Source of the DNA: Escherichia coli
Lineage (GTDB): Bacteria > Pseudomonadota > Gammaproteobacteria > Enterobacterales > Enterobacteriaceae
Direction: 5' to 3' (one strand)
NCBI RefSeq assembly: GCF_003334305.1
Contig: NZ_QOWS01000004.1
DNA: 64,000 nucleotides
Made by a program: the position numbers and the translations under genes. The notes beneath the pieces are model-generated. The model was given only the letters and a program-made list of their open reading frames with translations. It did not search any database and was not told where the DNA came from. Positions 1,964 to 48,724 of the stretch are shown piece after piece; within the stretch, counting starts at the first letter, position 1, and the number at the start of each line of letters is the position of its first letter.

Positions 1964-1967
<4 letters not shown>

Positions 1968-2614
1968 GCCTCTGCTCCGGGTTTGATCAGCATCAGACCA
2001 CAGCCGAACGCCCGGCTTTTGCCATACCCCTGACTGAGACGTTGCAGAAATAACCCGGGATCGGTGACCGTAAGCATCCCCGTATAATCCACGCTACTGA
2101 ACTGGATCAGTTGCCGGGTGTTTTCCCGCCGGGGTTGTTGTTGTCGGTAGGCATCAACCGAGGTATCCAGTAGTGTAAAACCACTTCTTTCCCCCTGCGC
2201 TGCCAGCCAGTCCAGCGCCGCCTGTTGTTGATGCAACCAGATATCACGCCCTTCCGCCTGCCCCTTCACCTGCCGTTTCGCCTCCATCAGCAGATCGTGG
2301 CGCTTGCCCGCTTTACAGATTGTTGGATTCGCCCGCAGGTTGAAACAAAGAGATTGTCCGGTACGCAGCTCGGACACAAATGGTCGGCATTCGATGGTGA
2401 AAGTTTCACTTTCCGCCGGGCGTGCCTGCGAGAGGACAAAAAAGCGAAACGCGCCCTGGAGTTCTTCCCGACGATAAAGAAATTGCCTTTCTTTGCCGCC
2501 AGGGAAGAGATCCCACAGCCACTGATGCATCACATATTCACCGCGATCCACCAGATGCAGCAACTGCGCAGGCGAAAGCTGGCCGGTATGTAAGGTTATT
2601 CTTGAGAGGTACAT
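1964..2614 (-). CDS. casE: Cas6e (CasE/Cse3) pre-crRNA endoribonuclease
   Basis: Start chosen at internal ATG giving MYLSRITLHTG... (216 aa) with AAGGAGG Shine-Dalgarno just upstream; conserved FNLRANP and GCGLM motifs; the annotated ORF extension to 2752 overlaps cas5 and is rejected. Confidence 0.85.
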
Positions 2615-3342: not shown

Positions 3343-3352
3343 AAGCCGCCCC

Positions 3353-4408: not shown

Positions 4409-4419
4409 GAGATAGTCCT

Positions 4420-4956
4420 TTATTGATTTTGTTCGTTATCGGCGTCGCCAGCCTGGTAATATTCCAGCGCCCAGCGGATACGGATAAATTCGGTTGGCCG
4501 CTGCTGGCGGCGGTGATGATTGAGCAGGTCGTCGCTCTCCTGGCACCAACGGAAGACCCCCTCTGCCAGAGAGTCAAGATTGACGGAACCGTTTAATAAT
4601 CTGACTGCGCGGCGTAACTGGCGCAGTAATTCATCCGGTGTTTTTACTGCCGACAGACGAGTAAAACGCCCCTTTGACATTACCGCCGCCAGCTGCGCGG
4701 CAAAAGGCTGCCGTTCATCAATAGCTTTAACATTGGCGCTAACTGCGGCTATCAGCGCCAGTGCGGTGATACGCCACTCAGGTTCATCCTGCCACTTTAT
4801 TTGTCTGTTCTTCAGAAACAGGCGAAATCCATCCGTCAGACAAACATCATTAACCGTCGTACTACGCCGCAGACTGGCACGTTCGCCACGTTTCTCCTGC
4901 AATTCCTCGTGCCATTTGCGCAGCGTGGCTTTGTGCTCCTCTTTTACAATACTCAT
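4420..4956 (-). CDS. casB: Cse2 (CasB) Cascade small subunit
   Basis: 178-aa ORF between cse1 and cas7; start overlaps cse1 stop. Confidence 0.85.
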   Translation of the reverse strand: MSIVKEEHKATLRKWHEELQEKRGERASLRRSTTVNDVCLTDGFRLFLKNRQIKWQDEPEWRITALALIAAVSANVKAIDERQPFAAQLAAVMSKGRFTRLSAVKTPDELLRQLRRAVRLLNGSVNLDSLAEGVFRWCQESDDLLNHHRRQQRPTEFIRIRWALEYYQAGDADNEQNQ

Positions 4957-6515: not shown

Positions 6516-6612
6516 ACGCATCCTCTCGTAAAAAAGACCATCCCAGGTCGGTTGTCCATCTTTCCATCCTTTTCGGTGTATCAACTATTCAGAGAGTCCT
6601 GTCGCAGACATC

Positions 6613-9506: not shown

Positions 9507-9659
9507 CTACTTCTTCGATTCGTAAGCGAGAACTGCCTTAAACTCCATACCACGTTCTCTGATACTCAACTCACACAACGAGTCGCCTACCATCAGCGTG
9601 AATCCCAGTACTGTAAAACACAGCACTATGATTGCCACAAGGGCATATTTTGTCAGCAT
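9507..9659 (-). CDS. Hok/Gef-family type I toxin (50 aa)
   Basis: Hand translation of minus strand: [50 protein letters not shown]; hydrophobic N-terminal helix plus the Hok signature SLCE-x-E-x-A-x-AYES; GGGAGG SD 6 nt upstream; same position as sokX in K-12 as recalled; not in the supplied ORF track (under 60 aa). Confidence 0.8.
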
Positions 9660-9757
9660 GTCTTGCCTCCCTGCAAAGAAGAGACTAACATTCGAATTGT
9701 TTGGGTTCGAACGTAAGCCTCAGGTTGATAGAAATATCGCCTGGGGCTTTTGTCCAT
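9653..9757 (-). CDS. mok-like upstream ORF (34 aa), translationally coupled to hok
   Basis: ATG preceded by GAGG; [34 protein letters not shown]; its TGA stop overlaps hok codons 1-2 (ACATGCTGA), the arrangement typical of hok/mok loci. Confidence 0.45.
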
Positions 9758-9865
9758 CTGGAACCTCGCGAATGCTTAACGCCAGACAGCCTCAAGCACC
9801 CGACGCCATTCTATACCTGATAATTCTTCCAGCGGCGTTCACGTTTAAAATCAGGAATACTGCTC

Positions 9866-25903: not shown

Positions 25904-26357
25904 TAACTACACTCGATGTCTTTAGAATAAAAGACAATACGAATCGCACTTTATCAATTTTCACTTAAAGTATGAACTGGATATCTTTATTCATAAGAAC
26001 TATTCATCAACAGCGTATAGAGGCGGTTATGTAAAACCACTCATTAGCCTCAAAACAAAGACAAACTTCCAGATTTATTACTTAACCAATGAATAACAAG
26101 CTTAAAAAATATACTGTTATTCTAAAGAAAAAATTAACAGGCATTAATTCAATATTAAAAAAATAATAGATTAAAATTTCTTAACGATTTAAGAATCATA
26201 CAAATAACACTTTGATTAAATTTAATTTTTTGTATCGATAATTGTGAACCTCTCTGGCATGGAGAACTATTTTGAACATGAGGTGTTACGTGGATATGTT
26301 GCTTATTACAAGTACTGCTAATATAAAAACTTGAGAAAGAGATAACGGGTTATATGG

Positions 26358-26935
26358 TGGTTTATCCCCGCTGGCGCGGGGAGCTCAACATCGGAAACGG
26401 CTTCGCGGCGGCGGCGTCCGGTTTATCCCCGCTGGCGCGGGGAGCTCTACGTGAAGAATATTTGCAACACCCGCAAGAACGGTTTATCCCCGCTGGCGCG
26501 GGGAGCTCGGCATAGCCAGGCTGATCCGGCGACGGCCTTACGGTTTATCCCCGCTGGCGCGGGGAACACTGTTCGGCGGGGCGGTAGTACCACTGTTTTT
26601 TCGGTTTATCCCCGCTGGCGCGGGGAACACATCAACATGCAGCGCGAACGGCTGCCCCTCGCCGGTTTATCCCCGCTGGCGCGGGGAACACTCTTATTCA
26701 GTCCCCTTTTCCATCTGCTGTGGCGGTTTATCCCCGCTGGCGCGGGGAACACGTAAATTGCGACGTCCTGCGCCAGTAATTCAACGGTTTATCCCCGCTG
26801 GCGCGGGGAACACGATGCGGCAGCGGCGGCGGGAAGTTATCGCGGCGGTTTATCCCCGCTGGCGCGGGGAACACCTTTCAATATAGTCAGAAAAGTCTTT
26901 TGGCAACGGTTTATCCCCGCTGGCGCGGGGAACAC
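26358..26935 (-). CRISPR. Type I-E CRISPR array 2: 10 repeats, 9 spacers of 32 nt
   Basis: Repeats at 26358,26419,26480,26541,26602,26663,26724,26785,26846,26907; the three leader-distal repeats end GAGCTC rather than GAACAC; leader at the 3' side on plus, so minus-strand transcription. Confidence 0.97.
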
Positions 26936-27130
26936 TCTAAACATAACCTATTATTAATTAATGATTTTTTAAGCCAGTCACAATCTACCAACTTTATAGT
27001 ATCACACAAACAACACATCCATTATGTTAAAGAGCACTTAATCCATTGATTAAAAAGGTAAATATTTAAAATAACTCTATACAAACTAAAATCTACCAAA
27101 CTTTACCGCAATAATTTTCACTCCAGCGAA
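26936..27130 (-). promoter_or_regulatory. Leader of CRISPR array 2
   Basis: AT-rich; shares CTAA-CATA and ACAATCTACCAACT motifs with the array-1 leader; a second AAATCTACCAAACT copy near 27090. Confidence 0.75.
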
Positions 27131-27946: not shown

Positions 27947-28238
27947 AGCATTCTCTGTGAAGTGGATAATTGTTAATTATTGCAGATCCTGCCACAACAA
28001 TCATGTCTTATTAACATTCTGTTACAGGCAGATTTAAAGAAAAATGCGAAACATATCGTTAATAATTAAAGGGAGTAACGTATTATGTCAGAAGAAAATA
28101 AAGAAAATGGATTTAATCATGTCAAAACATTCACCAAAATTATATTTATTTTTTCTGTGTTAGTTTTTAATGATAACGAATCTAAAATTACCGATGCCGC
28201 CGTCAATTTATTTATCCAGATTTAATGAGAAATTTATA

Positions 28239-29111
28239 ATGCGCTATTTCATACTAATGTTCACTTTCGTGTGTTCCTTTGTTGCAGCCCAACCAACTAT
28301 TGTCCCACAATTACAGCAACAAGTTACGGATCTTACGAGTAGCTTAAACTCACAAGAAAAGAAAGAACTGACGCACAAGTTAGAATCTATTTTCAATAAT
28401 ACCCAAGTGCAAATTGCTGTATTAATTGTTCCCACAACCAAAGACGAGACAATTGAACAATATGCTACAAGAGTTTTTGACAATTGGCGTTTAGGAGATG
28501 CCAAACGTAATGATGGGATACTGATCATTGTTGCCTGGTCAGATCGTACTGTCCGCATCCAGGTAGGTTATGGGCTGGAAGAAAAGGTAACCGATGCTCT
28601 GGCTGGAGATATCATCCGTAGCAACATGATACCCGCATTTAAACAACAAAAATTTGCTCAGGGATTAGAGCTAGCTATAAACGCTTTGAATAACCAACTC
28701 ACTTCACAACACCAATATCCGACTAATCCTTCAGAAAGTGAATCAGCGTCTTCCAGTGATCATTATTACTTTGCTATTTTTTGGGTATTTGCAGTGATGT
28801 TCTTCCCTTTCTGGTTTTTTCATCAAGGCAGTAATTTTTGTCGCGCATGTAAAAGTGGAGTCTATATTTCAGCAATCTATCTTTTAGATTTATTCCTGTT
28901 CTCCGATAAAATTTTTTCCATTGCTGTATTTTCCTTCTTTTTTACTTTCACCATATTTATGGTCTTTACCTGTTTATGTGTACTTCAGAAAAGAGCATCA
29001 GGTAAAAGTTATCATTCAGACAACAGCGGTTCCGGTGGAGGCTCAAGTGGCGGCGGATTTAGCGGCGGTGGCGGTTCTTCTGGAGGTGGCGGCGCATCCG
29101 GCCGCTGGTAA
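28239..29111 (+). CDS. ygcG: TPM-domain membrane protein with Gly/Ser-rich C-terminal tail
   Basis: 290 aa from [17 protein letters not shown] (signal-like); C-terminus [28 protein letters not shown]. Confidence 0.8.
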
Positions 29112-29120
29112 CTCAACCAT

Positions 29121-29152
29121 AAAAAATGCCAGCCCGGAGGCTGGCATTTTTA
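29121..29152. terminator. Bidirectional intrinsic terminator between convergent ygcG and eno
   Basis: AAAAAATGCCAGCC-CGGA-GGCTGGCATTTTTAAA: stem flanked by an A-run and a T-run. Confidence 0.8.
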
Positions 29153-29170
29153 AATCAGATAAAGTCAGTC

Positions 29171-30484
<1,314 letters not shown>

Positions 30485-30556
30485 TCACTAGTTAAACTGA
30501 AACTCCAGACAAACAACGCGTACCCAGGGTACGCGTTGCCGTTCTAACTTTTTTAC

Positions 30557-32209
<1,653 letters not shown>

Positions 32210-32421
32210 TTAGGTTGAAAAGACGATGGAATAACCAGGACGGGAAAGCAGTATACCCGAACATGACCTGTGCCACAAACTTTCATTATCCCTCCTCTTC
32301 GCCAGCGCACTATTGAAATCAGGAGTGAGAAAATAGCCCCTTTGGGGTAAATGTTTTTGACGCAAATCAAGCGCTTGTCATTTAAAAAATGACACAAATG
32401 GCGCTTGACCGCGTAATTCCC

Positions 32422-33213
32422 TTAGAGATCAATTTCCTGCCGTTTTACCTGTTGCCAGACTTCTTCCATTGTTTCGAGGTCAACACCTGTCATTTCCAGT
32501 CCACGCGCGGCAACAATACGCTCCACTTCGCGAAAACGACGCTCAAATTTTTCGTTCGCTTTTTGCAATGCGATTTCCGCTTTTGTCCCTAAATGACGAG
32601 CCAGATTGACCGTGGCAAACAGCAGGTCCCCCATTTCCTCCTCCAGTTTAGCCTGGTCGACAACAGCCTGCCGCGCTTCGTACATCACCTCGTCGATCTC
32701 TTCGTAGACTTTATCGACTACCGGACCAAGCGTCGTCCAATCGAAGCCAACGTTGGCGCAACGTTTCTGGATTTTTTGCGCACGCATTAAAGCCGGTAAA
32801 CTACGAGGAATATCGTCCAGCGCCGAATGCTGCGCTTTCTGCGCGCGCTCTTCGGTTTTGATTTGCTCCCAACGGGCAAGCACTTCACTACTGTTTTCGG
32901 CAGAACTGTCAGCAAAAACATGCGGATGGCGACGCTCTAATTTATCGCTAATCGCAGCGCAAATATCATTAAAGTCAAAGCGCCCTTCTTCCTGAGCCAT
33001 TTGCGCGTAAAACACCACCTGGAACAGCAGATCGCCGAGTTCACCGCGCAGATCGTCAAAATCTTCACGGGCGATGGCGTCCAGCACTTCGTAGGTTTCT
33101 TCAAGGGTGTAAGGCGCAATGGTGGCAAATGTCTGCTCTTTATCCCACGGGCAGCCGTTTTCCGGATCGCGCAGGCGCTGCATAATAGTGAGCAAACGGT
33201 CGATTTGATTCAT
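32422..33213 (-). CDS. mazG: Nucleoside triphosphate pyrophosphohydrolase MazG
   Basis: 263-aa ORF MNQIDRLLTIMQRLRDPENGCPWDKEQTF... Confidence 0.95.
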   Translation of the reverse strand: MNQIDRLLTIMQRLRDPENGCPWDKEQTFATIAPYTLEETYEVLDAIAREDFDDLRGELGDLLFQVVFYAQMAQEEGRFDFNDICAAISDKLERRHPHVFADSSAENSSEVLARWEQIKTEERAQKAQHSALDDIPRSLPALMRAQKIQKRCANVGFDWTTLGPVVDKVYEEIDEVMYEARQAVVDQAKLEEEMGDLLFATVNLARHLGTKAEIALQKANEKFERRFREVERIVAARGLEMTGVDLETMEEVWQQVKRQEIDL

Positions 33214-33283
33214 TAGAATGTCCTGAAAATTGCGGGTCTGTCAGGTGGAAACCTGTGACCAGAATAGAAGTGAGTTAGTAACA

Positions 33284-33619
33284 CTACCCAATCAGTACGT
33301 TAATTTTGGCTTTAATGAGTTGTAATTCCTCTGGGACAACCGTTCCTTTCTTCGTTGCTCCTCTTGCCCGCCAGGCGATACTTTTTACCTGATCAGCTAA
33401 CGCTACGCCATCACGTTCCTGACCGGATAAAACAACTTCGAACGGATATCCTTTTGATTGCGTTGTACAAGGAACACACAGACACATACCTGTTTTGTTG
33501 TTGTACATGAAAGGACTCAGGACAACAGCTGGACGATGTCCAGCTTGCTCGCTACCTTTTGTCGGGTCAAAATCAACACAAATCAGATCGCCCATATCGG
33601 GTACGTATCGGCTTACCAT
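33284..33619 (-). CDS. mazF: MazF mRNA interferase toxin
   Basis: 111-aa [56 protein letters not shown]... Confidence 0.97.
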   Translation of the reverse strand: MVSRYVPDMGDLICVDFDPTKGSEQAGHRPAVVLSPFMYNNKTGMCLCVPCTTQSKGYPFEVVLSGQERDGVALADQVKSIAWRARGATKKGTVVPEELQLIKAKINVLIG

Positions 33620-33867
33620 TACCAGACTTCCTTATCTTTCGGCTCTCCCCAGTCGATATTCTCGTGGAGGTTTTCCGGCGTGATGTCGTTGACCAGTTCA
33701 GCAAGCGTAAATACGGGCTCTTTACGCACTGGCTCAATAATTAATTTGCCATCCACCAGGTCAATCTTCACTTCATCATCAATATTCAGATTGAGCGCCT
33801 GCATTAACGTAGCCGGGATCCGCACCGCCGGTGAATTTCCCCAACGCTTTACGCTACTGTGGATCAT
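33619..33867 (-). CDS. mazE: MazE antitoxin
   Basis: 82-aa [40 protein letters not shown]...; stop overlaps mazF start. Confidence 0.97.
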
Positions 33868-33944
33868 AACCCTTTCCTCAAACCGCTATCATATGTAGAT
33901 ACAGTATATATCAATCTACATTGTAGATACGAGCAAATTTCTGC
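33868..33944 (-). promoter_or_regulatory. mazEF promoter/operator region with repeated palindromic GTAGATAC / ATCTACAT elements
   Basis: atatgtagatacagtatatatcaatctacattgtagatac between the relA stop and the mazE start. Confidence 0.6.
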
Positions 33945-36179
33945 CTAACTCCCGTGCAACCGACGCGCGTCGATAACATCCGGCACCTGGTTGAGTTTAC
34001 CCAGCACGCGGCCCAGCACCTGCAGGTTGTAAATCTCAATGGTCATGTCGATGGTTGCCAGTTGCTGTTTGGTGTCGCTACGGCTGGCAACACCAAGCAC
34101 GTTCACCTTCTCGTTGGCGAGAATGGTCGTGATATCACGTAACAACCCACTACGATCATTAGCCACCACGCGGACCACCAGCGAATATCCGGCGGAGTAG
34201 CTCTCACCCCATACCGCGTCAACAATGCGTTCTGGCGCATGGGAGCGCAGTTCCGCCAGTTGTTCGCAATCGGCGCGGTGTACTGAAATACCGCGCCCCT
34301 GGGTAATGAAGCCGACAATCTCATCTCCAGGAATCGGCTGGCAGCAGCGCGCGATGTGGTGCATCAGGTTGCCAACACCTTCGACCACCACGCGACCGTT
34401 ATCTTTACTGCGGTTTTGCGGCGTGTAGCTTTTTTGCTGAAGTTGCTTCAGCGCGGCGGCGTCCTGCTCTTCGGCACTCGGCTTATTAAATTGCGATTGC
34501 AGGAAGTTCACCATCTGATTGAGACGGATATCCCCGCCACCAATCGCCGCCAGCAACTCGTCGACATCATTAAAGTTGTAACGCGGCAGCAGATGTTTTT
34601 CTGCTTCTTTCAGGCTGATCCCCAGATGTTCCAGCTCGTCGTCAAGGATTTGCCGCCCAGCCAGAATGTTTTTGTCACGGTCCTGTTTACGGAACCAGGC
34701 GTGAATTTTCGAACGCCCACGGCTGGTTGTGACGTAACCGAGGTTTGGGTTTAACCAGTCACGGCTGGGGTTCGGCTGTTTCTGGGTGATAATTTCAATC
34801 TGGTCGCCCATCTGCAGCTGGTAGGTGAACGGCACAATGCGCCCGCCAATTTTTGCCCCGATGCAGCGGTGTCCGACATCACTGTGGATGTGGTAAGCGA
34901 AGTCCAGCGGCGTTGATCCCGCAGGCAAATCAACGACATCACCTTTCGGCGTAAAGACATACACCCGGTCGTCAAAGACCTGGCTGCGTACTTCGTCGAG
35001 CATTTCGCCGGAATCAGCCATCTCTTCCTGCCACGCAATCAGTTTACGCAGCCAGGCAATCCGGTCTTCATGTCCCGAACGTGCGCCGCCAGCTGCCGCG
35101 CCCTCTTTATATTTCCAGTGCGCAGCAACACCCAACTCTGCATCTTCATGCATCTGTTTGGTGCGGATTTGGATCTCAACGGTTTTGCCACCTGGCCCCA
35201 GAACCACGGTATGAATAGACTGATAACCGTTTGGTTTCGGGTTAGCGACATAATCGTCAAACTCATCCGGCAGGTGGCGATAGTGAGTGTGCACTATCCC
35301 CAGTGCGGCATAACAATCCTGTAAACGCTCGGCGACAATACGTACCGCACGCACATCAAACAGCTCATCGAAGGCGAGGTTCTTTTTCTGCATTTTGCGC
35401 CAGATGCTGTAGATGTGTTTCGGTCGACCATACACTTCAGCTTTAACGCCTTCAGCTTTCATCTCAGCGCGCAGATGGCCGACAAACTCTTCGATATAGT
35501 GTTCGCGGTCGAGACGGCGTTCATGCAGCAGTTTTGCGATGCGTTTGTATTCGGTCGGGTGGAGATAACGGAAGCAGTAATCTTCCAGCTCCCATTTCAG
35601 TTGCCCAATCCCAAGACGGTTCGCCAACGGCGCGTAGATATTGGTGCACTCTTTTGCCGCCAGTACGCGTTCATCTTCCGGCGCATCTTTTACTTCGCGC
35701 AGATGAGCAATACGCTCCGCCAGTTTGATGACCACGCAGCGAAAATCATCGACCATCGCCAATAACATCCGGCGAACGTTATCGACCTGTTCGGAGGAAA
35801 CAGAATCAGTGTGCGTCGCTTTCAGCTGGCGGATCGCCGCCATATCACGCACGCCGTGAATAAGGTTAACAACCGACTTACCGACGCTCTCACGCAGCAC
35901 ATCTTCGCTAACTACGTTGGCATCAGCCAGAGGGAACAGCAGCGCCGCCCGCAGCGTGTCAATGTCCATACTTAATGTCGAGAGGATCTCCACCATCTCA
36001 ACACCACGCCACAATAACAGACTGGCATCCGGATGCCCCTGCGTCTGTTGCAGACAATACGCCCAGGTTTCGGCTAAGCACTCACACGACTTCTGGCTGG
36101 TAATACCCAGACTTGCGATCCATTTTTCCGGATCAAATTCACCAGCCTTATTGATATGTGCACTTCTTACCGCAACCAT
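33945..36179 (-). CDS. relA: GTP pyrophosphokinase ((p)ppGpp synthetase I)
   Basis: 744-aa ORF MVAVRSAHINKAGEFDPEKWIASLGI... Confidence 0.98.
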   Translation of the reverse strand: MVAVRSAHINKAGEFDPEKWIASLGITSQKSCECLAETWAYCLQQTQGHPDASLLLWRGVEMVEILSTLSMDIDTLRAALLFPLADANVVSEDVLRESVGKSVVNLIHGVRDMAAIRQLKATHTDSVSSEQVDNVRRMLLAMVDDFRCVVIKLAERIAHLREVKDAPEDERVLAAKECTNIYAPLANRLGIGQLKWELEDYCFRYLHPTEYKRIAKLLHERRLDREHYIEEFVGHLRAEMKAEGVKAEVYGRPKHIYSIWRKMQKKNLAFDELFDVRAVRIVAERLQDCYAALGIVHTHYRHLPDEFDDYVANPKPNGYQSIHTVVLGPGGKTVEIQIRTKQMHEDAELGVAAHWKYKEGAAAGGARSGHEDRIAWLRKLIAWQEEMADSGEMLDEVRSQVFDDRVYVFTPKGDVVDLPAGSTPLDFAYHIHSDVGHRCIGAKIGGRIVPFTYQLQMGDQIEIITQKQPNPSRDWLNPNLGYVTTSRGRSKIHAWFRKQDRDKNILAGRQILDDELEHLGISLKEAEKHLLPRYNFNDVDELLAAIGGGDIRLNQMVNFLQSQFNKPSAEEQDAAALKQLQQKSYTPQNRSKDNGRVVVEGVGNLMHHIARCCQPIPGDEIVGFITQGRGISVHRADCEQLAELRSHAPERIVDAVWGESYSAGYSLVVRVVANDRSGLLRDITTILANEKVNVLGVASRSDTKQQLATIDMTIEIYNLQVLGRVLGKLNQVPDVIDARRLHGS

Positions 36180-36226
36180 CGTCCTCTCCTTTAGGGACCA
36201 GACCTGCCGAAATCGGCAAATCGTAA

Positions 36227-37528
36227 CTATTTAACGCGCGAGAAAAGTACCATCGATTCCAGATGTCCCGTGTGTGGGAACATATCCAGCATCGCCAGTC
36301 GCGCAATGGTATATCCTGCTTTTAATAACGCTTCGCTATCCCGAGCCAGCGTTGCAGGATTACAGGATACATAAACTATACGAATAGGTTCCAGTTTTAT
36401 AATTTGCTGTATAACACCTGCGGCACCTGCTCGCGCGGGGTCCAGCAACACTTTATCGAAGCCGTTTTTCGCCCACGGCTGCTTTGTGACATCTTCTTCA
36501 AGATTTTCATGATAAAACGTCACATTCTGTAAACCATTAAGACGCGCATTCTGCTGGCCTTTTTCCACCAGCGCCGGAACACCTTCTACACCCACCACAC
36601 TGGCAGCTTGTGTCGCCAATGGCAGTGTAAAGTTGCCCATACCGCAGAACAGATCCAGTACGCGATCTTCAGGTTGCACATCCAGCCATTCCAACGCACG
36701 CGCTACCATTTTTTGGTTCACACCCGCATTGACCTGAATAAAATCGCGCGGGCTAAAAGTTAAGCGCAACCCGTTTGAGTCATACCAGGGCATCTCACCA
36801 GAGACGGTTTCGAGTATCTCACTATCGGGGGCGAGATACAGATCCAGGCCTTCAGAATGCGAAAAGCGTTCCAGTTTTTCGCGATCAGCCGAACTTAGCG
36901 GTGCGGTATGGCGCAAAATCATCAGCGTGCCGCTGGTTGCCTGTACCAGTTCAACATGACCAAGATGGCGTATAGCTTGTAAGCTGCCCAGGCATGCCCT
37001 GACTTTGGGCAGCAATGCTTCAAGTTGGGGCACTAAAATGGGGCATTGTTTAACGTCGACAATGTCACTGGAGCCCGCTTTGCGAAAGCCCATCTGAAGT
37101 TGCTGTGTTTTCGGTAAGTAGTTCAAACTTAAACGCGCGCGACGGCGATAGCCCCAGGGAACATCGGCGATCACTTCAGAGACTTCGTGTTTCATTAATC
37201 GGGCGAGTGCCGCACTTTTGCTTCGCTGCTGTAAATCCACGCTGGCGTGTTGTTGCTGACAGCCGCCGCATACGCCAAAATGAGGACAGCGTGGCGTTTC
37301 GCGTTCCGGGCTATCGCTTAACCGGCGCACGACTTTAGCGCGGGCGTACTGTTTTTTATCTTCAGTAACAGTAACTTCCGCGTTTTCCTGTGGCAGTAAT
37401 CCAGGAATAAATAACGCTTTGCCGTTATGTCGCGCCACGCCCTGACCAAAAGAGTCGAGGTCGTTGACTGAAACGGTTATGATCTGACGCGTCGTCGTGC
37501 GTCGTTTTGCAGAGTAGAATTGCGCCAT
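36227..37528 (-). CDS. rlmD: 23S rRNA (uracil1939-C5)-methyltransferase
   Basis: 433-aa ORF with TRAM domain and 4-Cys cluster ([13 protein letters not shown]) plus SAM-MTase C-terminus. Confidence 0.93.
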
Positions 37529-37584
37529 TGGCGAGACTTTCTCAATTTAACAGTGTGACCTTAATTGTCCCATAACGGAACTCC

Positions 37585-40341
37585 ATGACCAACTACAGCC
37601 TGCGCGCACGCATGATGATTCTGATCCTGGCACCGACCGTCCTTATTGGTTTATTGCTGAGTATCTTTTTCGTCGTGCATCGCTATAACGACTTGCAGCG
37701 TCAACTGGAAGATGCCGGTGCCAGCATTATTGAGCCGCTTGCAGTTTCTACTGAATATGGCATGAGCCTGCAAAATCGCGAATCTATCGGTCAGTTAATA
37801 AGCGTACTGCATCGTCGCCATTCCGATATTGTTCGCGCGATTTCGGTTTATGATGAAAATAACCGACTCTTTGTCACCTCCAATTTTCATCTTGATCCCT
37901 CATCAATGCAGCTCGGCAGCAACGTGCCGTTTCCTCGCCAGCTCACTGTCACTCGTGACGGCGATATTATGATCCTCCGCACGCCGATTATTTCTGAGAG
38001 TTACTCCCCCGACGAATCGCCCAGTAGCGATGCCAAAAATAGTCAAAATATGTTGGGATATATTGCGCTTGAGCTGGATCTTAAATCGGTTCGCTTGCAG
38101 CAATATAAAGAGATCTTTATTTCCAGCGTGATGATGCTGTTTTGTATCGGTATTGCGCTTATTTTTGGCTGGCGCTTAATGCGCGATGTAACCGGTCCGA
38201 TTCGCAACATGGTGAATACCGTCGACCGCATCCGTCGCGGGCAACTCGACAGCCGGGTGGAAGGATTTATGCTCGGCGAGCTGGATATGCTGAAAAACGG
38301 TATCAACTCGATGGCAATGTCGCTGGCTGCTTATCACGAAGAGATGCAGCACAATATCGACCAGGCGACGTCCGATCTGCGTGAAACGCTGGAGCAGATG
38401 GAAATTCAGAACGTTGAGTTAGATCTGGCGAAAAAGCGCGCCCAGGAAGCGGCGCGTATTAAATCCGAGTTTCTGGCAAATATGTCACACGAGCTGCGTA
38501 CACCACTGAATGGTGTTATTGGCTTTACCCGCCTGACGCTGAAAACAGAATTAACACCAACGCAGCGCGATCACCTGAATACGATTGAACGTTCGGCAAA
38601 TAATTTGCTGGCAATTATTAATGATGTTCTCGACTTCTCGAAACTGGAAGCAGGTAAGCTGATTCTGGAAAGTATTCCATTCCCACTACGCAGCACGCTG
38701 GATGAAGTCGTTACTCTGCTGGCACATTCTTCTCACGATAAAGGGTTGGAACTGACGCTCAATATTAAAAGCGACGTGCCTGATAACGTGATCGGCGACC
38801 CACTGCGATTACAGCAAATCATCACTAACCTGGTGGGGAATGCAATTAAATTCACCGAGAATGGCAACATTGATATTCTGGTAGAAAAACGTGCGCTGAG
38901 TAATACCAAAGTGCAGATTGAAGTGCAGATTCGGGATACCGGCATTGGTATTCCTGAACGCGATCAATCGCGCTTATTCCAGGCCTTCCGACAGGCTGAT
39001 GCCAGTATTTCCCGCCGTCATGGTGGCACCGGTCTGGGGCTGGTGATTACACAAAAACTGGTTAATGAAATGGGCGGCGATATTTCGTTCCATAGCCAGC
39101 CGAATCGCGGTTCAACTTTCTGGTTCCACATTAATCTCGATCTGAACCCGAACATTATTATCGAAGGGCCATCCACCCAGTGCCTCGCCGGTAAGCGCCT
39201 GGCCTATGTCGAACCAAACTCCGCAGCAGCGCAATGCACGCTGGATATTTTAAGTGAAACGCCGCTGGAAGTGGTTTATAGCCCAACGTTCTCCGCGCTG
39301 CCTCCCGCGCATTACGACATGATGTTGTTAGGCATCGCGGTGACCTTCCGCGAGCCGCTAACAATGCAACATGAGCGATTAGCGAAAGCGGTATCGATGA
39401 CCGATTTCCTGATGCTGGCACTTCCTTGCCATGCACAAGTCAATGCAGAAAAACTCAAGCAAGATGGTATCGGCGCGTGTCTGCTGAAACCATTAACACC
39501 TACGCGCCTGTTGCCTGCCCTGACGGAATTTTGTCATCACAAACAAAACACGCTTTTGCCTGTAACCGATGAAAGCAAGCTGGCAATGACAGTCATGGCA
39601 GTTGATGACAACCCCGCTAACCTGAAACTTATCGGCGCATTGCTGGAAGATATGGTGCAACATGTGGAACTTTGCGATAGCGGGCATCAGGCGGTTGAAC
39701 GGGCGAAACAGATGCCGTTCGATTTGATCTTAATGGATATTCAAATGCCTGACATGGATGGCATTCGGGCCTGCGAGCTCATCCACCAGCTCCCCCATCA
39801 GCAACAAACGCCGGTTATCGCGGTAACGGCGCATGCAATGGCCGGGCAAAAAGAGAAGCTGCTTGGCGCAGGGATGAGCGATTATCTGGCGAAACCGATT
39901 GAAGAAGAGCGATTGCATAATTTGTTGTTGCGCTACAAGCCTGGCAGCGGTATTTCCTCTCGCGTCGTGACGCCCGAAGTCAACGAAATTGTGGTGAACC
40001 CGAATGCGACCCTCGACTGGCAACTGGCACTACGCCAGGCAGCAGGAAAAACCGATTTAGCGCGCGATATGCTGCAAATGTTACTCGATTTCCTGCCTGA
40101 AGTTCGCAACAAAGTTGAGGAACAGCTGGTTGGAGAAAACCCGGAAGGCCTGGTTGATTTGATTCATAAACTGCATGGCAGTTGCGGCTATAGCGGTGTG
40201 CCGCGTATGAAGAATCTCTGCCAACTGATCGAACAACAGCTACGTAGCGGTACTAAAGAAGAAGATTTGGAGCCGGAGCTGCTGGAACTGTTGGACGAGA
40301 TGGATAATGTAGCGCGCGAAGCCAGCAAAATTCTCGGGTAA
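37585..40341 (+). CDS. barA: Hybrid sensor histidine kinase BarA
   Basis: 918-aa ORF; HAMP, HisKA (SHELRTPLN), HATPase, receiver and HPt domains. Confidence 0.97.
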
Positions 40342-40403
40342 CGGACGTCTTGTCGAGTAGCAATCGGCTTTTTATGACGCTGGTTTCAGATTGGTGACAA
40401 AGT

Positions 40404-40455
40404 GCCTGTGTTTATGCCGGATGCGGCGTTAACGCCTTATCCGGCCTACAAAACC
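40404..40455. repeat. REP element downstream of barA
   Basis: GCCTGTGTTTATGCCGGATGCGGCGTTAACGCCTTATCCGGCCTACAAAACC. Confidence 0.8.
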
Positions 40456-40536
40456 AATTAAATTCAATGAATTAAAAAATGATGTAGACCTGATACATAG
40501 CACAACAGGCTATTTTGCGTTTAGCATCAGTCTCAA

Positions 40537-40567
40537 GCCGGCTCCAGATAGAGCCGGTTTTGGTTTT
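40537..40567 (+). terminator. Intrinsic terminator (plus-strand orientation), barA/gudD convergent gap
   Basis: GCCGGCTC-CAGATA-GAGCCGG followed by TTTTGGTTTT. Confidence 0.55.
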
Positions 40568-40572
40568 CTGTC

Positions 40573-41913
40573 TTAACGCACCATGCACGGGCGCTTGTTA
40601 TCGAACGTCCAGCCAGGAATCAGATACTGCATTCCCATCGCATCGTCACGCGCGCCAAGCCCGTGTTTCTGATACAGCTCATGGGCTTTCATCACTTGAT
40701 CCATATCGATTTCTACACCCAGCCCCGGTTTTTCCGGCACCTGAACCAGACCGCCTTTGATCTCAAACGGTTCTTTGGTCAGGCGCTGATTACCTTCCTG
40801 CCAGATCCAGTGCGTATCAATAGCAGTAATTTTACCCGGTGCAGCGGCGGCAACATGGGTAAACATCGCCAGGGAAATATCGAAGTGGTTGTTTGAGTGT
40901 GAACCCCAGGTCAGGCCAAATTCATGGCACATTTGCGCCACACGTACCGAACCTTGCATCGTCCAGAAATGCGGATCCGCCAGCGGGATATCAACGGATT
41001 GCAGGGAGAGCGTATGGCCCATCTGCCGCCAGTCGGTGGCGATCATATTGGTTGCGGTCGGCAGGCCAGTTGCGCGACGGAACTCTGCCATCACTTCACG
41101 CCCGGAGAAACCTTGCTCCGCACCACACGGATCTTCTGCATAAGCCAGCGACCCTTTCAGGTATTTACCAATTTTAATCGCTTCGTTCAGCGACCAGGCA
41201 CCGTTAGGATCGAGCGTAATACGCGCCTGCGGGAAGCGTTGCGCCAGTGCCACAATAGACTCGGCCTCTTCTTCCCCGGCCAGTACACCGCCTTTCAGTT
41301 TGAAATCGTTGAAGCCATATTTTTCATACGCCGCTTCCGCCAGGCGCACCACCGCATCCGGCGTCATCGCTTCTTCATGACGCAGGCGATACCAGTCGCA
41401 TGAGTCATCCGACTGGCTTTGATACGGCAGCGGTGTGGCTTTGCGATCACCGACGAAGAACAGATAACCGAGCATTTCGACTTCGCTACGCTGTTGACCA
41501 TCGCCCAGCAGGGATGCCACGTTTACCCCCAGATGCTGCCCCAGCAGATCCAGCATTGCCGCTTCTATCCCGGTAACTACATGAATAGTGGTACGCAAAT
41601 CAAATGTCTGCAAACCGCGCCCACCAGCATCACGATCGGCAAAAGTATTACGCACCAGCGTCAGAACGTTTTTGTATTCACCCAGCGTTTTACCTACCAC
41701 CAGCGGAATCGCATCTTCCAGCGTTTTACGGATTTTCTCGCCGCCGGGAATTTCCCCTACGCCAGTGTGACCAGAATTATCTTTGATAATCACAATATTA
41801 CGCGTAAAGAACGGTGCGTGTGCACCACTCAGATTCATCAGCATACTGTCATGACCCGCCACCGGGATGACCTGCATTTCAGTAACAACAGGCGTCGTAA
41901 ATTGAGAACTCAT
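40573..41913 (-). CDS. gudD: Glucarate dehydratase
   Basis: 446 aa from [32 protein letters not shown]...; enolase superfamily. Confidence 0.93.
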
Positions 41914-41933
41914 ATTTATGTCCTTTTTCAGAA

Positions 41934-43274
41934 TCAATGACGGCCGAAAACGGGACGTTTACGGTCAAAGGTCCAGCCGGGGATCAGGTACTGCATCGGA
42001 CCTGCGTCGTTACGCGCACCGACAGGCAGACGTTTATAGGCCTCATGTGCCTTTTGTACCTGTTCCCAGTCCAGTTCCACGCCCAGACCGGGCGCATCAG
42101 GAACGGCAATTTTTCCGTTTTTAATCTCCAGCGGATTTTTGGTCAGGCGACAATCGCCCTCCTGCCAAATCCAGTGGGTATCGATAGCGGTAGGATTACC
42201 CGGTGCCGCCGCGCCCACATGGGTAAACATCGCCAGAGAGATATCGAAATGGTTATTAGAATGGCAGCCCCAGGTCAGCCCCCAGTCGTCGCAAAGCTGC
42301 GCCACACGGACTGCACCGGAAAGCGTCCAGAAGTGCGGATCGGCAAGTGGAATATCTACCGCATTGAGCATCACCGCATGACCCATTTCGCGCCAGTTGG
42401 TGGCGATCATGTTAGTCGCGACGGGCAAGCCGGTCGCCCGCCGAAACTCCGCCATCACTTCACGACCGGAGAAACCCTGTTCTGCGCCGCATGGATCTTC
42501 GGCATAGGTAAGAACATCATTCAGCCCTTTGCATAGAGAAATGGCTTCATCAAGTAGCCAGGCACCGTTGGGATCAACGGTAATCCGCGCATCAGGGAAG
42601 CGTTTCTTCAATGCCCGAACAGTGTCGATTTCTTGCTCGCCAGGTAACACCCCGCCCTTAAGTTTGAAATCTTTAAAGCCATAGCGATCCTGTGAGGCTT
42701 CCGCCAGACGCACAACGGCTTCGCTGTTCATCGCTTTCTGATGGCGCAACTGATACCACTCATGGTTGCCCGGCGTATTTTCCAGATAAGGAAGATCGGT
42801 TTTGGTCCGATCACCGATATAAAACAGATAACCGAGGACGGTAATAGTCTCGCGTTGCTTGCCTGGCCCCAACAGTTCGCAGACCGGAACATTCAGCGCC
42901 TTACCTAGCAGGTCAAGCAAGGCGGCTTCCAGCGCCGCCACGGCATTAACGCGCAATTCAAAAGTCCAGGCACCTTTGCCGAAGGTATCAAAATCGGCTG
43001 CCTGATTACCTTTATGCACCTGCTGAACCACTTTATTCAGGCGCGCAACTTCCTGGCCCAGAACCATCGGAATAGCATCGACCAGTGTTTGATAAATCAC
43101 CTCTCCGCCCGGCGCTTCACCAATGCCGGTATGCCCGGCGTTATCGGTGAGTACCACAATATTGCGGGTGAAATATGCGTTATGTGCCCCACCAATATTA
43201 AGCAACATGCTATCGTGCCCGGCGACCGGAATGACTTTCATATCAGTAATAACAGGACTGGATTGTGTCGTCAT
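41934..43274 (-). CDS. gudX: Glucarate dehydratase-related protein
   Basis: 446-aa paralog of gudD directly upstream ([31 protein letters not shown]...). Confidence 0.93.
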
Positions 43275-43275
43275 C

Positions 43276-44628
43276 TTATTGCCCCGCGACAGGTTTCAGC
43301 TCGATACGCTTGATATCGCCCACCAGCACCAGGTAGCTCAGTACCGCGATTAAGGCATGAACACCAACATAAATCAGCGCCCCATTAAAGGAGCCAGTCG
43401 TGCCAACGATATAACCAATTGCGATTGGCGTGACGATGCCAGAAATGTTACCGAACATGTTGAACAGGCCACCGGAAAGACCGCTGATCTCTTTTGGCGC
43501 GGTATCTGCCATTACTGCCCAACCCAGCGCCCCGATGCCCTTACCGAAGAAGGCCAGCGCCATAAAGCCGATGATCATCCACTCAACGTTGACGTAGTTG
43601 CAGAACACCATCACCATCGACAGCAACATGCCCATTACGATCGGTGTTTTACGCGCAATGTTCAGCGATCCCGTGCGGCGCATCAGCCAGTCGGAAATAA
43701 TCCCACCCAGCACACCGCCGATAAAACCGCAAACCGCCGGAACGGAAGCCACAAAGCCCGCTTTCAGAATCGACATCCCACGCGCCTGCACCAGATAAAC
43801 CGGAAACCAGGTAATGAAAAAGTAAGTCAGGGCGTTGATACAGTACTGACCGATATAAACGCCGATCATCATCCGTGACCCGAGCAGTTGTTTGATCTGC
43901 CCCCACTTCACGCTGAACGGCACTTTAACTTTGGTGTTTTGCTGATCCATATTGATCAGCGCGCCACCCGCGGCGATGTACTCCAGCTCTTTCTGATTTA
44001 CCCCCGGATGTTGATTTGGCTCGTGGATGACTTTCAACCAGATAAAGCTGATGACAATCCCCAGACCGCCCATAAAGAAGAAGACGTGTGACCAGCCCAC
44101 TTCATGCGTCAGCCAGCCCATAATCGGCGCGAAGATCACCGTTGCGAAGTATTGAGCGGAGTTAAAAATCGACACCGCCGTTCCCCTTTCCTGCGCCGGA
44201 AACCAGGCCGCAACAATGCGACTGTTGCCGGGGAAAGATGGCGCTTCAGCAAGCCCGACCAGGAAGCGCAGAGTAAACAGGGCAACGATAATGCCGAATC
44301 CACTAAAGATATCGACGAAGCCTTGCAGCAAGGTAAACATCGACCAGATAAAGATCGACCAGAAGTAGACGCGTTTTGAACCAAAACGATCCAGCAACCA
44401 ACCACCAGGGATCTGCCCGATAACATAAGCCCATGAGAAGGCAGAGAACACATAGCCCATTCCCACGGGATCAAGGCCGATATCTTTGGCCATTTCCGAA
44501 CCGGCAATAGAAAGCGTAGCGCGGTCGCCGTAGTTGAAGGATGTGACGATAAACAACATCACCACTATCCAGTAACGAGCATTCGTGCGTTTTTCCACAC
44601 TGCTCGCAGCCTGACTTAAAGAACTCAT
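43276..44628 (-). CDS. gudP: MFS glucarate/galactarate transporter
   Basis: 450-aa multi-pass ORF heading the gudPXD operon. Confidence 0.93.
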
Positions 44629-45062
44629 TGTTGCACTCCTGAAAATTCGCGTTAGCCACGCTCACTCTGGACTGCGACATAGCCAGGAAATCAGAGGTGA
44701 CGTAGGGTGTTTTTTGCCGTTTTTATAGGTCGTTCGCCGAATACGGCGCGTGTTTATATCTGGCAATAGCAGTATAAAAAGCGCGCCATAGCGGCTCACC
44801 GTGCAACAACACAACATTAATGCGTTCAATGAGGCCCGATTTTGGCATTAGCCCTGGACGGTGGAATCCACTTCACGGAAATGAAAACAAGAACAAGAAA
44901 GGAAGGGTTAAAACGAAGAAATAAAGAAGAGTATGAAATGGATCGCTTGACTCCAGGCAAACGCCAGTAAAAATCCGCGCTATGAAGCAGTTTTTACTGG
45001 CATTTGCCTGAAAATATTCGATTCAGCACCGCTAAAACGACATTTACCGCTCGCTGAACATA

Positions 45063-45512
45063 TCAGGACAACAGCGTGCCCCACTGTTCGACCCACGGAT
45101 TTGATTCCGTTTCCGGTTCCGGGTTCTCACTGGCGTCAATCAACAGCATTTCGCCAACCCGCTGAGCGCTCTGTTCCTGCAACAAGGCATCGAACTGTTT
45201 GCCGCCATTGCAGAAATTTACATAACTGCTGTCACCGAGCGCAATCACGCCATAACGCAGATTCGGCTGGAAGCCCAGACTATCTTTGATTCCCTGAAAG
45301 AGCGGCACAATGCTATCAGGAAGGTCGCCCTGCCCGGTCGTGGACGTAACCACCAGAACATACTTATCCTGATAGGGCAGCCAGTCGCTTAATTCAGGAT
45401 CTTCAAATACCGTTGCTTTGTGGCCCTGTGCGGTCAGAATTGCTTCTGCTTCTTCCGCCACTAACAGCGAATTTCCGTACATGGTGCCGACAAAAATACC
45501 AATTTCCGCCAT
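45063..45512 (-). CDS. yqcA: Flavodoxin-like protein
   Basis: 149-aa [29 protein letters not shown]... Confidence 0.88.
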
Positions 45513-45529
45513 ACCGTTTTCTCCCTGGA

Positions 45530-46312
45530 TTAGGAACTTATCTCTCCATCCTGACCCGATGGCGCACTGAACTCAACCCTTTCATTTTCAGGAAGCAGAC
45601 CGCGCCAGCCAAATTGTGATAACGCCTGCATCCAGGTGTCGTCCAGGCCCGCGTGAATAGTCAGCGGCTCGCCAGTAAAAGGATGCGTCAATGACAACTG
45701 ACTGGCATGTAGCATTAACCGCTGGAGGCCAAAATGCTCAGCACCGCTGCGATTCTGGCGTAAATCGCCATGTTTGCTATCGCCAATAATCGGATGACGC
45801 AAATGGGCAAGATGTCGGCGAAGCTGATGTTTGCGTCCGGTTTTCGGCTCCAGTTCCACCAGGCCGTAGCGCGTGGTCGGGTAACGTCCGGTCGCTACCG
45901 GCATTTCTACGGTCGCCAGACCGCGATAATGCGTCACTGCTGGCTGCGAGCCTTTATCTTCGCGGGCAAATTTATCAGCGATTTTGTCCAGTTCTTCCAC
46001 CAGTGGATAATCCAGAACTGCTTCTTCCATCAACCAGCCGCGCACAATCGCATGGTAACGTTTCTGGATTTGGTGCTGTTCAAACTGTTGTGCCAGCAGC
46101 CGTCCGGCCTCGCTGGATAATCCCATCAACAACACACCAGAAGTGGGTCGGTCCAGACGATGAGCGGTAAAAACGTGCTGGCCAATCTGATCACGCACGG
46201 TTTGCATGACCACTACTTTCTCGTCGCGATCCAGCCAGCTGCGGTGAACCAGCCAGCCGGAGGGTTTATTTACCGCAACCAGCCATTCATCCTGATAGAG
46301 TATTTCCAGCAT
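45530..46312 (-). CDS. truC: tRNA pseudouridine(65) synthase
   Basis: 260-aa [28 protein letters not shown]... with RluA-family HRLDRPTSG motif. Confidence 0.93.
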
Positions 46313-46641
46313 TAGCTCGCATCATCCGCAAAAAGAGCATCCAGTTTTTCCAGCTCAGCCAGAATAAGCGCGCGTTGCGGATGGTCCGTCGCCAGCGCCA
46401 TTTCATAATAGGGTGCAACGGCAAAAGCGCCCGGTAACGGCTGTTTGTTATCTAACAAATCGTGCATTCGCGGGATCAGCACCCACTGCAACCACTCCAG
46501 TGGTTCCATGGTGTCCATAAAGAACGGTTGGGTACTATTAAATTGATGCGGCTGGGGTTCATCGTTTCGCCAGTGCTGATGTTCACGCAGTAACGCTTCA
46601 AGCGCCTGCAACTGGAGACGAACGCGGTCATGAGTGGTCAT
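46312..46641 (-). CDS. yqcC: DUF446-type small protein
   Basis: 109-aa ORF; overlaps the truC start. Confidence 0.85.
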   Translation of the reverse strand: MTTHDRVRLQLQALEALLREHQHWRNDEPQPHQFNSTQPFFMDTMEPLEWLQWVLIPRMHDLLDNKQPLPGAFAVAPYYEMALATDHPQRALILAELEKLDALFADDAS

Positions 46642-46685
46642 AAAGCAACCTCAATAAGAAAAACTGCCGCGAAGGATAGCAGGAA

Positions 46686-47052
46686 TAAAAAAAGGGAGCA
46701 CTGTATTCACAGCGCTCCCGGTTCGTTTCGCAGCATTCCAGCTACTTTTGTTGCTCCCTGCTCATCCTTGACAACTTTTCCTCTGGCCTTGCGGCCAATC
46801 GTTCATCCTGAACTATTGCTTCCTGCTCACACCACCCCGATGTGATACTTCATCCTGAAGTGTCCCTGGCCTTCCTGACCCACCGAATCATCCTGACCGG
46901 TTCTCATTCTCCATCCTGGAGGTGTCCTTTAACGCGTCCTGCGTCATCCTCTTCGCTTCATCCAGAAGCCTTTCCCTGAAACACCATCCTGGTGTGTCCT
47001 GCAGAAGTGTCATCATCCTGATGTTCACTTCGTTGTCTGACTCCCTGTCGAC
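46686..47052 (-). ncRNA. csrB: CsrB small RNA (CsrA-sequestering)
   Basis: Minus strand begins GTCGACAGGGAGTCAGACAACGAAG and carries many CAGGAUG/AGGAUG GGA motifs (plus-strand catcctg repeats); ends with hairpin GGGAGCGCTGTGAATACAGTGCTCCC + U8 at 46686-46725. Confidence 0.95.
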
Positions 47053-47225
47053 GAAGATAGAATCGTCTTTTTCGCGAAGTCTTACAAGGCGCTTACAGAC
47101 AATGCCTTAAGGAAAATTTCATATGAAAGTTAAGAATTAACAATCAACATTTTGATTTTAAATGAAAATAACGATTCTTATCTTTTTAAGTATTCGCTTA
47201 TTTCCTGGCGATCTCCTACAGAGTC

Positions 47226-47243
47226 TGTAAGAGATCTCTCACA
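47226..47243. promoter_or_regulatory. UvrY (SirA) binding box upstream of csrB
   Basis: Reverse complement reads TGTGAGAGATCTCTTACA, an 18-bp near-palindrome about 175 bp upstream of the csrB 5' end. Confidence 0.75.
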
Positions 47244-47262
47244 ACCAGATGGGGTATTTGGA

Positions 47263-47808
47263 TTACAGAAGAGGCTTAAGTTGATTAAGGAATTCCGCAA
47301 GATTTGAGGCTAAATGCGTCCGTTTACGTGTTCCCAGCGTCTCTTTGCACACTTCACCGGAGAGATTACACACCGAGATGACCTCTAACTCTTCTTCCAG
47401 CGTCGCGATAAATAGCGTGGGCGGCAGTTTTAGCCTTTTCTGAGTCACCAGATGACCAATCAGATTTTCCTGCACCCGACGGAAGTCGTCTTCACTCCAG
47501 GTTTGCAGCAATGTCAGTTTGATATCGCCAAACTGCGCGTGCATATCCCCGGCAAACTGAGTCGTATAAAAGGTATGAATTGTGGGTTGTATCACAATAT
47601 CAAAAGCGCGTTCAACCGCGTTTACATTTTGTTCCCCGGTAAACGGCTGGGGTTGCCAGTATACGGCATCTTCGGTAGTTGAAATAATGCACGGTGAAGG
47701 AACACCGTACAGTTCCTCACTTAACGGCCAGCTTTTATGCTCTTCATGCCACGCATCGCAGTAGCGTGCAGTAAAATCTTTCAGGGCTTGTGCGGTCAAA
47801 TCGTCCAC
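47263..47808 (-). CDS. syd: SecY-interacting protein Syd
   Basis: 181-aa [45 protein letters not shown]... Confidence 0.93.
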
Positions 47809-47875
47809 TAATTTCTCTCTTCACTTAAACCAGATACACTTGTCGTTTAGTTTATCTGGTTTATGACGGTGAAAC

Positions 47876-48724
47876 ATGTCTTCTTATGCAAACCATCAGG
47901 CACTTGCGGGCCTGACTCTTGGAAAATCAACCGATTACCGGGATACCTATGACGCCAGCCTACTGCAAGGCGTTCCACGCAGCCTGAATCGCGACCCGCT
48001 GGGTCTGAAAGCGGATAACCTGCCTTTTCACGGTACGGATATCTGGACGCTGTATGAACTTTCCTGGCTGAATGCGAAAGGTTTGCCGCAGGTCGCTGTC
48101 GGTCATGTTGAACTTGATTACACCAGCGTAAATCTGATTGAGTCGAAGAGTTTTAAGCTCTATCTCAACAGTTTTAACCAGACGCGTTTTAATAACTGGG
48201 ATGAGGTGCGCCAGACGCTGGAGCGCGACTTAAGCACTTGCGCCCAGGGTAAGGTTAGCGTGGCGTTATATCGTCTTGATGAACTGGAAGGCCAGCCGAT
48301 AGGTCATTTCAATGGCACCTGCATTGATGACCAGGATATCACTATCGATAACTATGAATTCACTACTGACTATCTGGAGAATGCCACCAGCGGTGAAAAA
48401 GTAGTGGAAGAGACGCTTGTCAGCCACCTGCTGAAATCAAACTGCCTGATCACCCATCAACCAGATTGGGGTTCGATCCAAATTCAGTATCGTGGACGCC
48501 AAATTGACAGAGAAAAACTGCTGCGTTACCTGGTCTCATTCCGTCATCACAACGAGTTCCACGAACAGTGCGTGGAACGCATCTTTAATGACCTGTTACG
48601 CTTCTGCCAGCCAGAGAAATTAAGCGTTTACGCACGTTATACCCGTCGTGGCGGTCTGGACATTAACCCGTGGCGCAGTAATAGCGATTTTGTCCCATCG
48701 ACCACAAGACTGGTTCGGCAATAA
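47876..48724 (+). CDS. queF: NADPH-dependent 7-cyano-7-deazaguanine reductase
   Basis: 282-aa [38 protein letters not shown]... Confidence 0.95.

Follow-up and report, generated by a model that had tools for sequence, protein, structure and literature searches.

Directly downstream of relA, the Escherichia coli contig analysed here carries a toxin–antitoxin gene pair, which raises the question of whether this is simply the familiar mazEF module with its operator or whether the toxin that it encodes departs from the one known from K-12. The answer has two parts. The locus is almost certainly the chromosomal type II toxin–antitoxin module mazEF (chpA) of E. coli, in its usual site between relA and mazG. 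Its mazF is an allele that encodes cysteine in place of a conserved tryptophan, and we infer that the product would still be a folded, functional toxin that MazE can neutralize, possibly somewhat destabilized or weakened. Below, the window denotes the whole stretch of DNA that was analysed, 64,000 nucleotides in length.

Identity and setting of the locus

Reading of both strands showed that relA, mazE, mazF and mazG are co-oriented and that all four lie on the minus strand. relA (GTP pyrophosphokinase, 744 aa; 33945–36179) was recognized from its ORF and from the relA annotation of identical RefSeq loci, mazE (antitoxin, 82 aa; 33619–33867) from its ORF, PDB identity and profiles, mazF (toxin, 111 aa; 33284–33619) from its ORF and profiles, and mazG (nucleoside triphosphate pyrophosphohydrolase, 263 aa; 32422–33213) from its ORF and a match to NF007113 (370 bits, cut-off 208). 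The relA stop codon lies 77 nt from the mazE start, and mazF is separated from mazG by 70 nt. The stop codon of mazE and the start codon of mazF overlap by 1 nt in TAATG (from TGG TAA TGG), with 33619 as the common base. The first-pass annotation had claimed both this overlap and a position just downstream of relA, and we confirmed the two points; the span that it gave for the module, 33284–33944, coincides with mazF, mazE and the gap that precedes them, but the strand, which is minus, had been omitted. With the antitoxin gene first and the toxin gene directly 3′ to it on the same strand and translationally coupled, the pair has the organization of a type II operon.

The identification as mazEF between relA and mazG was upheld by PDB identity, Pfam, the NCBIfam equivalogs, RefSeq annotation and the operator match. 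MazE is identical over its full length (82/82, 100%) to PDB 1MVF_D and 1UB4_C, and it matched PF04014 (MazE_antitoxin, 4.6e-14) as well as the NCBIfam equivalog NF007312 (196.2 bits, cut-off 113). PF04014 and the PDB identity assign to the protein encoded at 33619–33867 (minus strand) an AbrB/SpoVT-type N-terminal domain that binds DNA and a disordered, MazF-binding C-terminal tail. MazF matched PF02452 (PemK_toxin, 4.6e-22) over residues 10–109 and the NCBIfam equivalog NF007386, 'endoribonuclease MazF', over residues 1–111 of 111 (219.5 bits, cut-off 120), and by family it is predicted to be an ACA-specific endoribonuclease of the PemK/MazF fold; toxins of this family cut single-stranded RNA without needing the ribosome and stop growth when induced. 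The locus is a known system that had been correctly identified, and its mazF allele, with W14C and A95V, already has a RefSeq accession (WP_000254731.1). Since mazEF is among the most studied toxin–antitoxin modules, a copy at its usual site and with its usual operator has little discovery value.

The mazEF locus of E. coli K-12 (chpAI/chpAK, b2783/b2782) occupies the same position in the order relA–mazE–mazF–mazG and has the same 1-nt overlap. The chromosomal paralogue chpBIK of E. coli (ChpS/ChpB) shares the PemK/MazF toxin fold and the AbrB-type antitoxin, but the NCBIfam cross-matches obtained here were far below the respective cut-offs (ChpB, 54.2 bits against 129; ChpS, 34.6 bits against 101), indicating that the locus is mazEF and not chpB, which is located elsewhere on the E. 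coli chromosome. Distant similarity was also found to kis–kid (R1) and pemI–pemK (R100), which have a homologous toxin fold (match to Kid, 1M1F, E = 4e-09) and likewise a two-gene type II organization; these are plasmid-borne and act as post-segregational plasmid stabilizers, whereas the locus studied here is chromosomal.

The 731-nt segment 33214–33944 is annotated in RefSeq as mazF/mazE in 4611 of 5426 complete E. coli genomes, and all 4614 E. coli matches to it were chromosomal, with a median of one copy per genome. No match was found in 815 of the 5426 genomes, and about 195 more gave a partial match only. The surrounding 20 kb (28000–48000) was found in all 5426 and, since the flanks are thus always present and the segment is missing from 815 genomes, mazEF acts as an accessory segment inserted between relA and mazG. 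About 10 RefSeq genomes among the matches listed were 100.0% identical to the 20 kb around the locus, and four of these, strains A7, 41, TUM12355 and FCI51, reached the full bit score over that length.

Cysteine at position 14 of MazF

The first-pass annotation had asked for no further test unless sequence variants were found, and its assumption that there were none did not hold. Ungapped comparison with MG1655 showed zero differences in mazE, with MazE identical to that of K-12, two amino acid substitutions in MazF (W14C and A95V), one synonymous change in mazF and one SNP in the promoter region. MazF is accordingly 109/111 identical to the K-12/PDB protein, the aligned 3NFC, 5CK9 and 1UB4 sequences differing from it only by W14C and A95V. 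Codon 14 (33578–33580, minus strand) reads TGT instead of the K-12 TGG through an SNP at 33578, and codon 95 (33335–33337, minus strand) reads GTC instead of GCC through an SNP at 33336. The synonymous change, ACA to ACG at T93 (33341), removes one of the nine ACA triplets of the mazF mRNA. Three further base changes relative to K-12, at 33215, 33216 and 33218, fall within the 5 nt before the mazG start, which read ATTCTAATG here and AATTCAATG in K-12.

Within the relA–mazG block, non-synonymous differences from K-12 are confined to mazF. relA carries 46 synonymous and 0 non-synonymous changes and mazG 10 and 0, which makes 56 and 0 for the two genes together, and mazF carries 1 synonymous and 2 non-synonymous changes. 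If chance alone placed the non-synonymous changes among the 59 changed codons, the probability of finding both in mazF would be 3/1711, suggesting that mazF is the least constrained gene of the block. Such a pattern would fit a toxin under relaxed constraint.

With K-12 MazF as the query, 1.84 billion representative proteins were searched exhaustively, and 130 full-length homologues, with 38–64% identity to this query over the matched stretch, were aligned. Position 14, which lies in a hydrophobic run (residues 12–15), was occupied by Trp in 103 of the 130 sequences (79%), by Tyr and Lys in 5 each, by Met and Leu in 3 each and by Phe in 2, and Ser, Arg, Glu, His and Val also occurred; Cys was found there in none of the 130. 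By conservation, position 14 ranked 27th among the 111 residues, and position 95, which is freely variable, ranked 89th. Judged from this alignment, W14C is a non-conservative change at a conserved position, by which MazF has lost the conserved large hydrophobic residue, and A95V is probably neutral, its column being variable. Trp14 is a conserved feature and not a defining one, so that the Cys14 protein stays in the MazF family. Nonetheless, because Trp is present in 79% of the 130 homologues and Cys in none of them, full activity of the toxin cannot be assumed. Residues Glu24, Arg29 and Thr52, which we take to be catalytic or substrate-binding positions, are unchanged from K-12, and their columns are 93–97% conserved among the 130 homologues. 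A full-text literature search, the scope of which did not take in Zorzini 2016 (JBC) and Vaiphei 2010 (AEM), returned no published role for MazF Trp14; 'W14' in the sole MazF paper that matched was strain W1485, and the SaMazF paper was silent on residue 14.

Among 4419 complete E. coli genomes with a match, the 80-mer around codon 14 was exact in 28 (0.6%) and at least one base off in the others. By exact protein look-up, the W14/A95 (K-12), W14/V95 and C14/V95 forms of MazF were each present on at least 1000 contigs and the C14/A95 form on only 39, indicating that C14 arose on the already common V95 background. Sequencing error as the source of W14C was rejected, the exact allele being carried by 26–28 complete genomes that are independent of one another, as well as by at least 1000 contigs.

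Five W14C carriers (H15, D6, RM10809-3 O22:H8, SW070917 and JNE082640) were compared with the window. In all five, mazF, mazE and the relA–mazE gap were identical to those of the window, and mazG differed by at most 1 SNP. Relative to the window, relA carried 13–16 SNPs in three of them, rlmD 22 SNPs in one, and gudD and gudX 25–30 SNPs in another; the gene content near ygcG and in the ygc region varied from carrier to carrier, and the hosts of W14C carriers ranged from frog to human. The presence of 13–16 SNPs in relA as against none in mazF, mazE and the gap, and at most 1 in mazG, suggests a recombination breakpoint near the relA–mazE junction. A single recent clone was ruled out as the source of these carriers by the SNPs in relA (13–16) and in gudD and gudX (25–30), which accompany an identical mazF, mazE and gap. 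In the carriers examined, the frame of the W14C mazF was intact and no second disabling mutation was found in it. The occurrence of an intact allele in several flanking haplotypes indicates that it is tolerated and persists, from which full activity does not follow.

The alternative that best survives these results is that of a decaying or weakened pair, in which W14C makes MazF unstable or poorly active and the locus operates mainly as an autoregulated MazE repressor whose toxin has been disarmed. The replacement of a large by a small residue within the run 12–15 would suit such a loss, as would the standing of W14 in the alignment (27th of 111 in conservation, 103 of the 130 homologues having Trp there and none Cys), but Tyr, Phe, Leu or Met is tolerated at this position in other homologues, residues 24, 29 and 52 are unchanged, and E. 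coli MazF devoid of Trp reportedly retained activity. Likewise, the rarity of the allele (28 of 4419 genomes) and the confinement of the non-synonymous changes of the block to mazF could be taken as signs of decay; set against them are a reading frame that is intact and identical in all the carriers examined, across their different flanking haplotypes, and the lack among these carriers of a second disabling mutation. On balance, we regard decay of the pair as unlikely, though still worth reckoning with.

A more elaborate proposal, which we put forward tentatively and consider rather improbable, is that W14C marks a maintained allele of a weakened or altered toxin that has been spread by recombination to several E. 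coli backgrounds, the same base also shifting initiation of the antisense RNA aMEF. On such a reading, the stability of MazF, its affinity for MazE or its RNA binding may be affected and, if it were true, the W14C lineage would run mazEF at a set-point other than that of K-12. The reading that we prefer is still that MazF (C14, V95) would be a folded and functional toxin under the control of MazE. For MazF as a model and a tool, the result means that a natural allele with Cys for the conserved Trp exists in about 0.6% of the locus-carrying complete genomes. This allele would provide a ready-made test of how much toxin activity is kept by selection in a chromosomal toxin–antitoxin module.

The antisense RNA aMEF

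The K-12 RefSeq annotation contains ameF (b4844), a feature of 400 nt at 2911051–2911450, and when carried over the ungapped alignment it predicts aMEF at 33579–33978 on the plus strand of the window. The 75-bp promoter fragment of aMEF is placed by positional homology to K-12 at 33504–33578, also on the plus strand. The predicted RNA is identical to that of K-12 except for one base (33942), and the promoter fragment likewise shows one difference (33578). The latter is the W14C base, which is therefore position −1 relative to the annotated aMEF start and the last base of the promoter fragment. We treat this apparent overlap as a coincidence. A 146-aa ORF antisense to mazEF (33458–33898, plus strand) overlaps the aMEF region; it is probably a mere mechanical ORF opposite coding sequence.

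Van Gundy et al. (2022) found weak, non-canonical promoter activity in the 75 bp upstream of the aMEF start (PMC8749433). Silent mutations of this promoter lowered mazEF expression and abolished the monocistronic mazE transcript, and RNase III was dispensable for regulation by aMEF (PMC8749433). The change at 33578 might accordingly have been selected at the level of RNA and not of protein, acting through aMEF initiation to shift the ratio of mazE to mazEF expression. The position of the SNP invites this reading, since the 5′ end of aMEF in the K-12 annotation corresponds to 33579 and the SNP is the final base of the 75-bp fragment with demonstrated promoter activity, and knock-down of the aMEF promoter alters mazE and mazEF transcripts and protein levels (PMC8749433). 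However, this promoter is weak, non-canonical and poorly conserved (PMC8749433), changes at −1 usually have modest effects on initiation, and a single SNP that meets a single landmark carries no statistical weight. Selection through aMEF is thus very unlikely in our view, and we continue to read W14C as a change in a toxin that would still be functional. The W14C allele would nevertheless serve as a test of whether one base can act on the toxin and, at the same time, on the start of the antisense RNA that regulates it.

The relA–mazE gap and other loci of the window

The gap between relA and mazE (33868–33944, minus strand) contains the mazEF promoter/operator region and is identical to that of K-12 except at 33942. 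According to Zorzini et al. (2015), the operator comprises three sites for MazE dimers in the order c-a-b, and binding of MazE to the 'cab' DNA was measured by ITC (PMC4333400). An exact match to this 50-nt oligonucleotide, which is equally identical in K-12, is present at 33884–33933 (minus strand). Site 'a', as quoted in the same study (PMC4333400), was read directly as TTGATATATACTGT on the minus strand at 33901–33914, and its centre is an ATATAT palindrome at 33906–33911.

A repeat search of 33860–33950 recovered a 9-nt direct repeat of TGTAGATAC (33894–33902 and 33922–33930) and an 8-nt inverted repeat, ATGTAGAT/ATCTACAT (33893–33900 and 33914–33921), with the ATATAT palindrome between the repeat arms. 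It also recovered a second inverted repeat of 7 nt, ATCTACA/TGTAGAT (33914–33920 and 33922–33928). The element 33914–33921 would be able to pair on either side, because it takes part in both inverted repeats. When the 77-nt gap was shuffled 5000 times, direct repeats of 9 nt or longer arose 44 times and inverted repeats of 8 nt or longer 190 times, and the two arose together once. The direct and inverted repeats claimed in the first-pass annotation were thus found independently and in combination are far beyond chance, and its description of a repeat-rich operator is borne out by the exact match to DNA bound by MazE. By its sequence, this operator is the 'alternating palindrome' of mazEF that was published by Marianovsky et al. 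(2001), as summarized in PMC4803016, the binding of MazE itself being taken from the literature.

That the repeats are no operator but a chance palindrome, the relA terminator or the remnant of a mobile element is barely conceivable, for although the inverted repeats could fold as hairpins in relA read-through RNA and no separate minus-strand terminator for relA is predicted within the gap, the gap exactly matches DNA with measured MazE binding (PMC4333400), the stems are A+T-rich and lack a T-run after them, the repeat pattern arose in 1 of 5000 shuffles, and the gap is single-copy, with a median of one place per genome. All of these candidates are effectively ruled out by the published binding to an identical sequence.

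Promoters P2 and P3, 13 nt apart, and a Fis site have been placed in the mazEF gap (PMC4803016). A consensus promoter scan gave weak matches only, with 3 found against 3.9 expected in shuffled sequence, so the promoter positions given here follow the literature and not the scan. A sigma-70-like TAGGCA-16-TACAAT at 33947–33920 (minus strand) is a consensus match only. The SNP at 33942, a C to A change relative to K-12 on the coding strand, lies 2–3 nt past the relA stop codon and converts TAGGCC to TAGGCA in the −35-like hexamer; from this position we infer only that it might affect the promoter or the Fis site.

P2 and P3 are repressed by MazE, and more strongly by the MazE–MazF complex, and Fis activates them (PMC4803016). 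In the window, P2 and P3 in the gap would drive mazE and mazF and possibly mazG too, co-transcription of mazG with mazEF being disputed. Dimers of MazE would occupy the operator through their AbrB-type N-terminal domains and repress transcription, more tightly with MazF attached, and Fis would activate mazEF from an upstream site. In the complex, the C-terminal tail of MazE would wrap the MazF dimer and block its RNA-binding groove. Being degraded by ClpAP/Lon, MazE is labile and would be lost when synthesis falls. The MazF thereby set free would cut single-stranded RNA at ACA, including its own mRNA, so that translation would stop. The aMEF antisense promoter inside mazF would add to this scheme by raising the output of MazE and MazF. 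Whether mazEF acts physiologically in cell death, in reversible stasis or in phage defence is debated in the literature.

The first-pass annotation had further described two toxin–antitoxin loci, one of hok type and mazEF, as flanking the CRISPR-Cas and ygc regions. A putative hok/sok-type locus is indeed present, between the putative cas3 (6613–9312) and cysH. It comprises, both on the minus strand, a match to sok RNA at 9644–9801 (Rfam RF01794, 113 bits; gathering score, 59) and, overlapping this match, a Hok-like ORF of 50 aa at 9507–9659, which scored 57.7 against a cut-off of 89 for HokA and 41 against 73 for the Hok subfamily and may be a divergent or inactive chromosomal copy of hok. 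The cys and ygc genes and a second CRISPR array do lie between this locus and mazEF, but the putative cas operon and the first CRISPR array lie beyond the hok locus, so the statement is only partly accurate.

The first CRISPR array runs from 19 to about 700 with a periodicity of 61 nt and at least 10 units, and it adjoins a minus-strand run of large ORFs (1047–9312), the last of which encodes 899 aa (6613–9312). The array and this run have the appearance of a type I-E cas operon of E. coli, cas3 included. The second array, an orphan, lies in the ygcE–queE interval. Its ten regular repeats span 26349–26940, and the first three of them end in GAGCTC and not in GAACAC; two degenerate repeats, at 25756 and 25817, lie 0.5 kb upstream of it. 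The interval is longer by 244 nt, or four 61-nt units, than that of strain H15. Tandem Repeats Finder reported no arrays in the window, and both CRISPR arrays were recovered by a separate repeat search, the program having missed them because their spacers differ from one another.

Gene content in this part of the chromosome differs in some W14C carriers. In two of them (loci L004 and L006, 3983–5902), a LemA-family gene, a truncated TPM-domain gene and a hypothetical gene take the place of the yqcG/ygcG segment found here between queE and eno. The gene immediately after queD in JNE082640 is a truncated FGGY-family kinase gene, apparently a remnant of ygcE, and the ygc region of this strain seems to be largely missing. 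On the other side of mazEF, the window contains the small RNA CsrB in full length on the minus strand at 46684–47043 (Rfam RF00018, 380 bits).
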